Virus record (IMG/VR): IMGVR_UViG_3300018475_000104
Coordinates: 1-64,000 of that record
Strand: one strand, 5' to 3'
DNA length: 64,000 nucleotides
Origin: a virus
Taxonomy: Duplodnaviria > Caudoviricetes
Part shown: positions 3,269 to 56,225 of the stretch, piece by piece
Layout: each line of letters starts with the position of its first letter
How positions within the stretch are numbered: position 1 is the stretch's first letter
Program-made: the position numbers and the translations under genes
The notes under the pieces: model-generated
What the model was told of the DNA's origin: nothing
Databases searched by the model: none
The model's input: the letters and a program-made list of their open reading frames with translations, nothing else

Positions 3269-3417
3269 TTTTACCTCCGATAGGAAAAGAAAATCAGATG
3301 GGGTGACAATTCCCATATCTCCATCGCGGCGAAGGCTGCCCGTTCCTTCCTCTGATTTTCTTTTAATGGTGCGGAAGACGGGAATCGAACCCGTATGCCC
3401 TTGGGGCGAGGGATTTT

Positions 3418-4131
3418 CTTACTACTCCATATTACTATGGCCGTATTTCTACGTTGTAGTCTGGACTATGTCTTAACCATATCTTTTGACTTAGGTTGCT
3501 GGTGTATAGTCTCTACACATTTATTTGGCGCAGTTTTTTCCTCTATAAGACTCTGTAAAAGCGTGGCAATTAGGACACAATAAAGCAAAATTTTCTATTG
3601 TATTATTATGTCTGTTGCCATCTTTATGATGTAATTCAAGTGGAATTGGTTTATCTAACCAAGTTTCAAGACCACAGCATTCACATCTATGTTCTTTCAA
3701 CCCTTCTTCTAAGAGCTTAATCCTAACTTTATTTGTTTGAATATCTTTGCTATTGGCTAAATATTCTTCTAAAGTTAATTTAGGCATCTTTTTTGTTAAA
3801 CCTTTTCCAGCTTTATTACCATCATATTTTAAACCAAGTCTGTCTAAAATAGAGTTAATTGTTTTTGGATTGCAAGCGAGTTGTCGCGCCATATAGGCTT
3901 TTGATTGCCCCTCTTGTATCCATTGTTCAATTTCTGCTTTTCGTTCTAAAATATCAGTTCGCATTTCCATCACCTCTCATAATATAAGTGGATTTGGATT
4001 ACACTTACTTTAACTTTTTAGAACGTAAACCAAAATTTAGCACGGCGTCCTCTTGGCTATTCGCCGTTTTAGCCAGCTTCTACTCTTAAAGTTTCCTTTA
4101 AGGCACTCTCCTTTTACGTCTGCCAAGACGA
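3418..4131 (-). mobile_element. Group I intron with HNH homing endonuclease
   Basis: 5' exon ends in U and intron ends in G; R/S elements GTAGAGACTA and AAGACATAGTCC (P7); P3 GCTGG/CCAGC. Confidence 0.92.
3521..3973 (-). CDS. HNH homing endonuclease (intron-encoded)
   Basis: CECCG...LELHHKDGNRHNN..ENFALLCPNCH. Confidence 0.92.
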   Translation of the reverse strand: MMEMRTDILERKAEIEQWIQEGQSKAYMARQLACNPKTINSILDRLGLKYDGNKAGKGLTKKMPKLTLEEYLANSKDIQTNKVRIKLLEEGLKEHRCECCGLETWLDKPIPLELHHKDGNRHNNTIENFALLCPNCHAFTESYRGKNCAK

Positions 4132-4252
4132 AAGTCCCTTGCGTCTGCCTGTTCCGCCACTCCCGCATACTCAGTTGAAGTCTCCCTCAGCCTTGTATAT
4201 ATATTATATCAAAACTTTTGAAATTTTTCAAATTTTAAACACTAAAGAATTT

Positions 4253-30152: not shown

Positions 30153-31163
30153 ATGGAATTATTTCTTATAAGTATTATAGGTTGTTTAATTATAGGTTTC
30201 TTATTTTATATAGATAGTAGAAATAAGAAACATAAGTAGAAAGAATAGGAATATATTAATAAAATAAAAGAATAGGAAGATTTTATTTAGAAAGCAAAAG
30301 ATGATAAAATTGAATTGTTAGATAGTGATGTTGCAGTATTAAAATAGAAATTAAAAAATTTAGTTGATGAAATTTATGAAAAACAAAGGCTTAATAAAGA
30401 ATTAATTAAACTGCGCCAAGAAGAACTTGATGAAATAATTAAAAAAGAAAGAATTGAAAAGCAGAAGAGTCTTGAAAATGAAATGATTGCTTTTCGTCAA
30501 TCATAGCTTGCTCAAATTAATGCAGAAGTATCTGCAAATCAAATGCTTTTTGAACGAAAGAAAGAAGAATTAGCCAATATACTTTCTGCTGAAAAAGAAA
30601 AGTGTGAAGCTGAGGTCTCTAAAATAAAATTGTAGCTTGAAGATTTTCGTATACAGCGCGAAAGCGTTAATCAAGCGATTCTTCGAGAAAAGGAAATTCA
30701 AGAACAACAAGACTTTTATAGAATTGTTGTTACAGAAAAAGAACAAGCTGACATTCAAGTCTTACAAGATATTATTCCGAGATTAAACAATCGAGAAGCA
30801 ATTTCAAAATTAATTTGGGAATTGTATATTCGGCGCCCTGTACAGGAAATGATAAAGCGAATCACAAAAGGAAAAAAGATTAGTGGTATTTATAAGATAA
30901 CTTATTTAAAAACTGGCGAAGCGTATATAGGAAAGACCACTGATATATCTACTCGTTGGAATAACCACCTAAAAACAGTTTGTGGTTTAGAAGGCGCGGC
31001 GCATTCTACATTACATACTCATATGGAAAGAAACGGTTTATGGAATTACACTTTTGAGATACTTGAAGAGGTTGATAAAGATAAGTTAAGTGAGCGAGAA
31101 GCTTATTACATTGACTTTTATAATACAAAGAACTATGGTTTAAATCAAAAACGAGGCGGATAA
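30153..31163 (+). CDS. TM-anchored coiled-coil protein with C-terminal GIY-YIG nuclease (7 in-frame TAG)
   Basis: Open frame from ATG 30153 with only TAG interruptions; SGIYKIT...YIGKT..RW..H. Confidence 0.82.
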
Positions 31164-55413: not shown

Positions 55414-55449
55414 ATAGCCGTGTAGTTTAATGGTAAAACGCCGGTCTCT

Positions 55450-56138
55450 AATTAAAAATTGGACACCAAGAAGGGAAACCGCTTGTGTGAATCGTGTCAA
55501 ATTCGGTAAAACTCTTTAGGAGAATACAATGGCAACAAAAATTTCACTTTTAAGTGACGAAGAATTTTAGAAAATAATTTATGAATCTTATTCCTATGCT
55601 GAATGTTGTAGAAAGATTGGATATAGTGATAAAGGAAGTCATGGCACAGATGCGATAAAGAAAAGATGTCAAGAACTTAACTTGTCTACTAGTCATTTTT
55701 CTAAGACCAAGGCAGCAAATAAAAGTAGCACAAAATATTCTTTAGATGATATATTGATTGAAAATTCTAATTATAAAAACATATCAAGATTAAAAACTCG
55801 ACTAATCAATGAAAACAAACTTGAATATAAATGTGCTATATGTGGTAATACTGGAGAATGGAATAATAATCCCCTAGTTCTTCAATTAGACCATATTAAT
55901 GGAAAACACAACGACCATCGTTTAGAAAATCTAAGATTCTTATGTCCTAACTGTCATTCTCAAACAGAAACATATTCTGGAAAAAATAAAAATAAAGACA
56001 ATACCGAGCTAAATCAGTAAAAAACTGTAAATGTGTAGAGACTAAACGGCACGAACCTAAACCCAATTTGGGCATGGTTAAGATATAGTCCAGACTACAA
56101 CACAAATAATTGTGGCCATGGTGACATGGAGTAGTATG
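55450..56138 (+). mobile_element. Group I intron with HNH endonuclease
   Basis: P1 TCT|AATT/AATTGGA with U.G at the splice site; P3 TCGTGTC/GGCACGA; GTAGAGACTA and AAGATATAGTCC (P7); terminal G. Confidence 0.92.
55529..56020 (+). CDS. Intron-encoded HNH endonuclease (in-frame TAG at codon 14, 55568-55570)
   Basis: AGGAG RBS then ATG 55529; CAICG...LQLDHING..NDHRLENLRFLCPNCHSQT. Confidence 0.88.
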
Positions 56139-56225
56139 AAAACCGTAATATCCTTCTGACGGAGGTTATCTGGGTTCGAATCCCAGCACGGCCGCCAATC
56201 AAATATTTTACTGGAGGACAGTCCA

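Follow-up and report, generated by a model that had tools for sequence, protein, structure and literature searches.

A phage amber suppressor tRNA split by a probable group I intron carries a second, anticodon-like arm that may support its charging with glutamine

Results

The 64,000-nucleotide stretch of DNA analyzed here (the window) comes from a 109.5-kb virus record (IMG/VR IMGVR_UViG_3300018475_000104), estimated to be 89% complete, and harbors an amber suppressor tRNA gene, tRNA-Sup(CUA), in two exons. Exon 1 (55416..55449, +) matches intron-less homologues over the same positions and contains the 5′ strand of the acceptor stem (AGCCGUG), U8 and A9, the D arm, G26, the 5′ strand of the anticodon stem (CCGGU), and C32, U33, C34 and U35. 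Exon 2 (56139..56197, +) supplies A36 to A38, ACCGU, a second arm, the T arm (56170-56186, +), CACGGCC, G73 (56194) and an encoded CCA. When U55449 was joined to A56139 in silico, ARAGORN recognized a 93-nt tRNA with the anticodon CUA in a CUCUAAA loop, an A×C mismatch at 1:72 and a G2:C71 pair. The gene was detected by this program only when spliced in silico or when introns were allowed, and an Rfam search at the gathering threshold detected neither the suppressor tRNA nor its intron. The body of the tRNA is class I, with 7/5 acceptor/T helices, a 4-bp D stem and a 7-nt D loop; the D arm (GUUU/AAUGGUA/AAAC) lies in exon 1, 689 nt upstream of exon 2.

An earlier, sequence-only reading had assigned the suppressor to 56139-56197. 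Every feature that it listed does exist, but this stretch is exon 2 only, and A1, the D arm and CCGGU-CUCU are found in 55416-55449. The A1:C72 mismatch, G73 and 23-nt variable region described in that reading are present, ARAGORN also giving A×C on the spliced tRNA; a C×U mismatch at 27:43, which arises since the 3′ strand of the anticodon stem ends in U, had escaped it.

We searched for homologues with a degenerate pattern comprising the D arm, CUCUAAA and the T loop; exact strings of the T-arm/acceptor and D-arm/anticodon regions of the window had no match in viral contigs. Other phage contigs and a single contig of a Bacillota MAG yielded intron-less homologues, which were 78-82% identical outside the T arm. 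The closest of them have A×C at 1:72, G73 and a long arm in common with the suppressor, and their anticodon arm matches its own down to C27×U43. Since the intron-less homologues read CCGGU-CUCUAAA-ACCGU straight across the junction, the exon junction is confirmed, and their existence indicates that the suppressor gene is no chance cloverleaf. No second CUA tRNA was found in the 109.5-kb, 89% complete record.

The intervening 689 nt (55450..56138, +) constitute a probable group I intron, delimited by the homologue junction, that separates U35 from A36 of the anticodon. The match to the Rfam group I model RF00028 (E=0.003, 22 bits) is below the gathering score of 50. The intron carries a J8/7-P7 motif, AAGAUAUAGUCC, along with a P7/P3 segment of the AGACUAAAC type; its last base is G, and the base preceding the 5′ splice site is U. 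A P1 helix can be drawn by eye, in which exon positions 55443-55449 pair with 55461-55467 and the splice-site U lies opposite G55461 (U.G). Within the intron is an ORF for an HNH homing endonuclease (55529..56020, +; Pfam HNH PF01844, E=7e-6), which has an in-frame TAG at codon 14 (55568-55570), and the endonuclease gene itself therefore needs the suppressor.

A second split tRNA gene in the window encodes tRNA-Leu(UAA) (3367-4166, -; 86 nt after splicing) and contains a 714-nt intron at U34/A35, the classical site. The HNH ORF of this intron (3521-3973) is 30% identical to that of the suppressor intron, the 3′ cores of the two introns are 85% identical, and both splice sites read YU/AAAA (the slash marking the junction). 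The shared splice-site sequence suggests that the intron moved between the tRNA-Leu(UAA) and suppressor genes. A skipping-rope RNA (RF02924; 3290-3359, -; 60 bits, above the gathering score) lies a few bases downstream of exon 2 of the tRNA-Leu gene. ARAGORN, with introns allowed, also proposed a candidate third interrupted tRNA (571-1135, -) with a 487-nt insert containing an ORF (634-1092) that has TAG as codon 2; Rfam gave only 26 bits for the tRNA at 1063-1135. The mobile-element nucleases of the window (HNH and GIY-YIG) are all TAG-dependent, and a GIY-YIG nuclease ORF (30153-31163, +) has seven in-frame TAGs, the densest in the window.

The gene content of the phage includes a PolC-like polymerase, topoisomerase II and NrdD. 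Searching with the dUTPase-like protein returned only two relatives, G001 (115 kb) and G002, with ∼50% identity, and no suppressor adjoined the dUTPase-like gene in either of them; a structural-protein query returned no relatives. A thyX-like label for one ORF was not used as evidence, since Pfam gave that ORF no family. In-frame stops met in aligned segments were TAG in 88 of 120 cases in G002 and 20 of 42 in G001, and at least G002 is also TAG-recoded. The phage record gave no match to PF00749 (the Glu/Gln synthetase catalytic domain), GatB, PF00587 (the class II synthetase core, SerRS-type) or a release factor, and charging of the suppressor would therefore depend on the host.

Many ORFs of the phage, including those of the endolysin, a RuvC-like nuclease, two GIY-YIG genes and tail genes, are joined only if TAG is read through. 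Counting ORFs across the window with various sets of stop codons could not tell the codes apart, but ORF joining and alignment could. All ORFs were aligned to G001 and G002, where 159 TAG sites face a residue, and substitution frequencies were taken from the same alignments. The log-likelihood at these sites was highest for Gln (-397), as against -470 with Lys or Glu, -528 with Ser and -620 with Trp, placing Gln ahead of the next residue by 73 log units and ahead of Ser by 131. Q was found opposite 29% of the TAG sites, as compared to 36% opposite true Q codons, and Ser opposite only 5%. In the first peptidoglycan-binding repeat of the endolysin, TAG faces a conserved Q of solved homologues of the phiKZ gp144 type (PDB), and the second repeat of the same endolysin has Q at that position. 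Taken together, these alignments show that in-frame TAG stands for Gln, and not for Ser or Trp. Gln is also what the suppressor most likely inserts, as the sequence-only reading had proposed, given the log-likelihoods and the Q opposite TAG in the peptidoglycan-binding repeat.

The 23-nt ‘variable arm’ of the suppressor (56147..56169, +) forms a second anticodon-like hairpin, as indicated by an apex that is conserved across long-arm CUA tRNAs. Its 7-nt loop, UUCUGAC (56154-56160, +), displays the triplet CUG (56156-56158, +), which ends 11 nt ahead of the T stem. The predicted apex reproduces the anticodon loop of tRNA-Gln, a feature missed by the sequence-only reading, and Gln identity therefore looks built in, rather than an accident of Su7-type mischarging. 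That reading had proposed a CCTTC/GGAGG stem. This stem can fold, and with a UGAC loop it is the minimum-energy structure of the isolated 23-mer (-5.4 vs -1.7 kcal/mol), but relatives back the other register, in which UUCUGAC is closed by CC/GG. In isolation, the tetraloop fold of the window’s copy is 3.7 kcal/mol more stable, and it buries the C of CUG.

We performed three scans for similar tRNAs, in which GGUA or the D arm, the anticodon loop, a 26-40-nt gap and the T loop were fixed, and the content of the arm was left free. There were 22 unique long-arm CUA tRNAs, including that of the window, with CUG at the apex in 21 and UUG in one; the 7-nt loop was CUCUGAA in 14. All 13 unique UCA suppressors showed CCA at this place, in the form (C/G)UCCAAA, which is the Trp loop. 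The scan with the D arm of the window and a free anticodon gave at least 119 matches, at least 84 of them unique, and all those listed were UAU tRNAs; GAU was present at the apex in 83 of 84 unique tRNAs among the matches listed.

Across the three classes (UAU among the matches listed), 11 nt separate the copied triplet from the T stem in 112 of 118 tRNAs, and on its 5′ side the triplet lies 5 to 13 nt from the real anticodon arm. An ordinary anticodon has the same 11-nt spacing, the sum of two loop bases, five stem bases and the four of a variable loop or linker. Within the CUA family the loop is fixed while its closing pairs covary (CG, GC, UA), and the second stem is short and imperfect, with two positions that are always paired followed by positions paired in 73%, 27% and 50%. 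The long arm was found in none of 42 tRNA-Gln, 48 tRNA-Trp and 44 tRNA-Ile(GAU) from the same loci, and the ordinary long arms of Ser, Leu and Tyr tRNAs from these loci had one of their own anticodons at this 11-nt spacing in no more than 5 of 145 cases. The reversed order, with the CUG arm first, had no metagenome match, as against 58 loci with the CUA arm first. Conservation of the second arm, along with its spacing and order, is thus seen throughout the family.

Since 14 of the 35 CUA tRNAs in the loci examined have short variable loops, the second arm is not obligatory for CUA suppressors. One such tRNA (L190, on contig C11 of G003, a Bacillota MAG) has C×C at 1:72 and G73, and is a second, unrelated suppressor body likewise with an unpaired first pair. 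The UCA opal suppressors (viral contigs L219-L237) have as their second arm a near-perfect copy of the Trp anticodon arm, with a 5-bp stem and CUCCAAA. The UAU tRNAs listed form a large class (viral contigs L024-L142, e.g. L061:3673-3745) with A73 and a class I D arm, and their apex is mostly CAGAUUA. A 95-nt tRNA of G001 (L004:3540-3634) was considered as a homologous suppressor and rejected, as it falls in the UAU/GAU class; its loop is CCUAUAC, with C and not U at position 33. In the long-arm tRNAs of two viral contigs, L139 (anticodon UUA) and L061 (with an odd anticodon call), the arm holds CUGCAA, which resembles the Cys (GCA) anticodon loop, and these may be further classes of the two-arm design.

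We then compared the tRNAs with the bacterial identity sets given in PMC9976931. In the CUA family the 1:72 pair is never G:C (U:A in 11, A×C in 8), and G2:C71 is present in 20, G10:C25 in 21 and G73 in 18 of the 22 members. A1:U72 and G73 occur in 13 of 13 UCA tRNAs, and A73 in 83 of 84 UAU tRNAs among the matches listed. The predicted identity bases of the acceptor stem thus follow the copied triplet across the CUA, UCA and UAU families. The Gln set comprises G73, U1-A72, G2-C71, G3-C70, G10, U34, U35, G36, A37 and U38 (PMC9976931). The suppressor of the window has G73, G2-C71, G10, U35 and A37, and deviates at 1:72 (A×C, which is weak but not U-A), 3:70 (C-G), A36 and A38; the G36 of the set is present only in the second arm. 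The earlier proposal that U35, G73 and a weak 1:72 pair favor Gln is in accord with the bacterial Gln set, as are G2:C71 and G10 (PMC9976931). From the Trp set (G73, A1-U72, G2-C71, G3-C70, G4-C69, G5-C68, A9, C34, C35 and A36; PMC9976931), the tRNA carries G73, G2-C71, G5-C68, A9, C34 and A36, and differs at 1:72 (A×C), at 3:70 and 4:69 (both C-G), and at position 35 (U).

The amber form of E. coli tRNA-Trp receives Gln, and GlnRS of this species needs no extra arm to charge amber suppressors that combine U35, G73 and a weak 1:72 pair (PMC9976931). Asn or Ser amber suppressors become Gln inserters when 1:72 is weakened, or when 1:72 and 3:70 are both altered (PMC9976931). As this holds for Ser suppressors too, a long arm does not block GlnRS. 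SerRS ignores the anticodon (PMC9976931), and the sequence-only reading had raised a Ser-like identity conferred by the long arm. The tRNA of the window departs from bacterial class II tRNA-Ser in having A×C in place of G1-C72 and a D arm with a 4-bp stem and 7-nt loop; as the TAG sites are also unlike Ser, this suggestion found no support. Because its D arm is class I, the suppressor is not derived from a class II tRNA.

The proposed origin from tRNA-Trp fared less clearly. Outside the T arm, and in comparison with the tRNAs of one Bacillota MAG, the suppressor is most similar to Trp (65%), but with a margin of only 3 points over Thr and Phe (62%); identity to Gln is 53% and to Ser 30-60%. 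The anticodon arm differs from that of the MAG tRNA-Trp only at positions 27 and 35. Members of the family with the same anticodon arm carry acceptors of the Gln type (UGGGG, with U1:A72). In a tree of 53 core columns, which is too short to place the tRNA, the suppressor grouped with A1-type CUA tRNAs, and the UCA family fell elsewhere, together with cellular tRNA-Trp; AU tests on this 53-column alignment left both groupings standing, with p=0.62 for Trp and p=0.70 for Gln. The idea of a Trp origin stays alive because A×C is one change away from the Trp-type A1:U72.

Discussion

We propose that the split gene encodes a phage amber suppressor that is functional once its group I intron is removed, that reads UAG as Gln, and whose second arm enables charging with Gln. 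To this reading as a whole we assign a probability of about 0.6. In outline, excision of the intron from the anticodon loop would yield a functional CUA tRNA, with a second hairpin in the place of the variable loop whose own loop reproduces that of the Gln anticodon (UUCUGAC in this copy, mostly CUCUGAA elsewhere in the family). The first arm, with the real anticodon, retains its normal link of one base (position 26) to the D stem, and the second arm the normal 11-nt spacing to the T stem. Since each arm keeps half of the normal links, either could stack under the D stem of the resulting five-way junction, and the choice of stacking would allow the synthetase and the ribosome to use different heads. 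The second arm would present the G36 lost from CUA, alongside a 1:72 pair that is not G:C, G2:C71, G10:C25 and G73, to an anticodon-dependent host enzyme that would charge the tRNA with Gln, either GlnRS or a non-discriminating GluRS followed by GatCAB. Both routes are possible because a GlnRS-type C-domain is present in only 19 of 39 genomes of the candidate Bacillota order to which the MAG belongs, an order that may not be that of the phage host. We infer from conservation alone that the charging enzyme reads the second arm. Class I synthetases (GlnRS, TrpRS and IleRS) approach the tRNA with the variable region facing the solvent. As the loop of a variable arm would therefore lie away from the anticodon-binding domain, a rearranged stacking of the five-way junction must be assumed. 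The proposal is also weakened by the short second stem, by the more stable tetraloop fold of the isolated arm, by the CUA suppressors that manage with short variable loops and the arm-less amber suppressors that E. coli GlnRS charges (PMC9976931), and by the sub-threshold Rfam score of the intron. More generally, we see an even chance that phages keep the identity of tRNAs with a changed anticodon (CUA, UCA or UAU) by building in a copy of the original anticodon arm, which would make these tRNAs two-headed.

The second hairpin could be functional without having a part in charging, as a bait or shield for anticodon nucleases, as a handle for modification or processing, or as a second decoding head that reads CAG. 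The conservation, spacing and order of the arm are equally strong evidence for such roles, since they do not name the partner, and either arm could stack under the D stem here as well, each having kept one half of the normal connections; phage tRNAs are also reported to counter tRNA-cleaving defenses (PMC11555353, PMC13096335). We nevertheless regard a non-charging role as unlikely. The classes that bear the arm (Gln, Trp, Ile) are those of synthetases with identity elements in the anticodon (PMC9976931), the arm is confined to tRNAs whose real anticodon is not the cognate one, and the identity bases of the acceptor co-vary with the copied triplet, which a nuclease bait would not need. Quite unlikely, in our estimation, is the reading in which the suppressor is an analogue of Su7, with a tRNA-Trp body and C35U, charged by GlnRS through U35, G73 and the weak 1:72 pair, and with an arm that has no role in identity. 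It would account for the bases shared with the Trp set (A1, A9, G73, G2:C71, G5:C68), for the 65% identity to tRNA-Trp and an anticodon arm differing from that of the MAG only at 27 and 35, and for a first pair one change from A1:U72, with the Trp grouping unrejected (p=0.62); it also has the precedent of glutaminylated amber tRNA-Trp in E. coli and of Gln inserters made by weakening 1:72 (PMC9976931). An inert arm, however, would not keep CUG or UUG at its apex in 22 of 22 tRNAs at a fixed spacing, and the long-arm suppressors that are truly of the Trp type (UCA) show CCA there and not CUG. Moreover, the tRNA has C:G at both positions where the Trp set has G3:C70 and G4:C69, Gln-type U1:A72 acceptors are found in members that share its anticodon arm, the margin over Thr and Phe is 3 points, and the Gln grouping is equally unrejected (p=0.70).

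A Ser-inserting suppressor similar to class II tRNAs, analogous to supD and charged by SerRS by way of the long arm and G73, appears very improbable. The 23-nt arm, G73 and G2:C71 are in place, and SerRS is indifferent to the anticodon (PMC9976931), but Ser is 131 log units worse than Gln at the TAG sites, of which only 5% face Ser. In addition, the G1:C72 conserved in bacterial tRNA-Ser is A×C here, and the class I D arm (4-bp stem, 7-nt loop) is unlike those of the Ser tRNAs of the MAG (30-60% identity). That insertion of the intron killed the suppressor, with TAG being read by something else, is scarcely credible. The Rfam score of the intron is below threshold, and another suppressor could lie in the missing part of a record that is 89% complete; yet both exons are intact and match intron-less homologues, the splice-site U and terminal G are in place, a paralogous intron resides in the tRNA-Leu(UAA) of the same phage, and dozens of genes need a CUA tRNA in 109.5 kb where no other one was found.

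If the charging role proposed for the second arm is correct, the arm would be a kind of tRNA identity element not described before, and would show how phages with recoded stop codons obtain charged suppressors. It would also explain why tRNA finders miss or mislabel such genes, and could serve as a natural design for orthogonal suppressor tRNAs. A copied cognate loop in three independent classes (Gln, Trp and Ile), with exact spacing and matching acceptor bases, makes this a concrete hypothesis. The copy in the window would further indicate that the two-arm design can accommodate a group I intron within the real anticodon, with an endonuclease that is itself dependent on the suppressor.

Group I introns are found in tRNA anticodon loops, as in cyanobacterial and plastid tRNA-Leu(UAA). 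The suppressor intron resembles these in its position after a U in the anticodon loop, its terminal G and its homing endonuclease. It differs in its site, between U35 and A36 of a suppressor anticodon, and in the TAG at codon 14 of its endonuclease gene.

Phage tRNA-Sup(CUA) has been described in ‘code 15’ phages that read TAG as Gln, including crAss-like phages, Lak phages, phAss-1 and others (10.1101/2021.08.26.457843; PMC10607447; PMC9523058). As in the phage studied here, these have a CUA tRNA of their own and in-frame TAG, inferred to mean Gln, in late and other genes, and they lack a synthetase, so that they are assumed to rely on host enzymes; how phage suppressors become charged has been named an open question (Borges et al., 10.1101/2021.08.26.457843). 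Unlike the tRNAs reported there, the copy in the window is split by a group I intron and has the A×C mismatch at 1:72, and the accessible portions of those papers do not mention a long arm or a Gln-anticodon loop. More broadly, the accessible portions of the recoded-phage papers, the papers on non-canonical tRNAs and the identity review contain no description of a second arm; this coverage leaves subscription journals mostly aside.

With E. coli Su7 (PMC9976931), the suppressor shares U35, G73 and a weak first pair, which favor Gln, as well as a Trp-like A1 and anticodon stem. Su7, a class I tRNA, has a short variable loop and its charging is mixed, whereas the tRNA of the window has an extra hairpin displaying CUG and lacks three of the five acceptor-stem pairs of the Trp set. 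A fifth helix arising from the variable region and a length of ∼90 nt are features common to class II tRNAs (Ser, Leu, Tyr and Sec) and allo-tRNAs (PMC5389517, PMC7609411). However, the arms of class II tRNAs are without a conserved anticodon-like loop (5 of 145 by chance) and their D arms are class II, and allo-tRNAs have 8/4 or 9/3 acceptor/T helices in contrast to the 7/5 seen here. A further parallel lies outside tRNA, in the mimics of anticodon arms that bind synthetases in the E. coli thrS operator and the yeast AspRS mRNA (PMC9976931). There too, a hairpin with the loop of the cognate anticodon is recognized by the matching synthetase according to its identity rules, but those mimics act from mRNAs to regulate translation, whereas the putative mimic described here sits inside the very tRNA that is to be charged.
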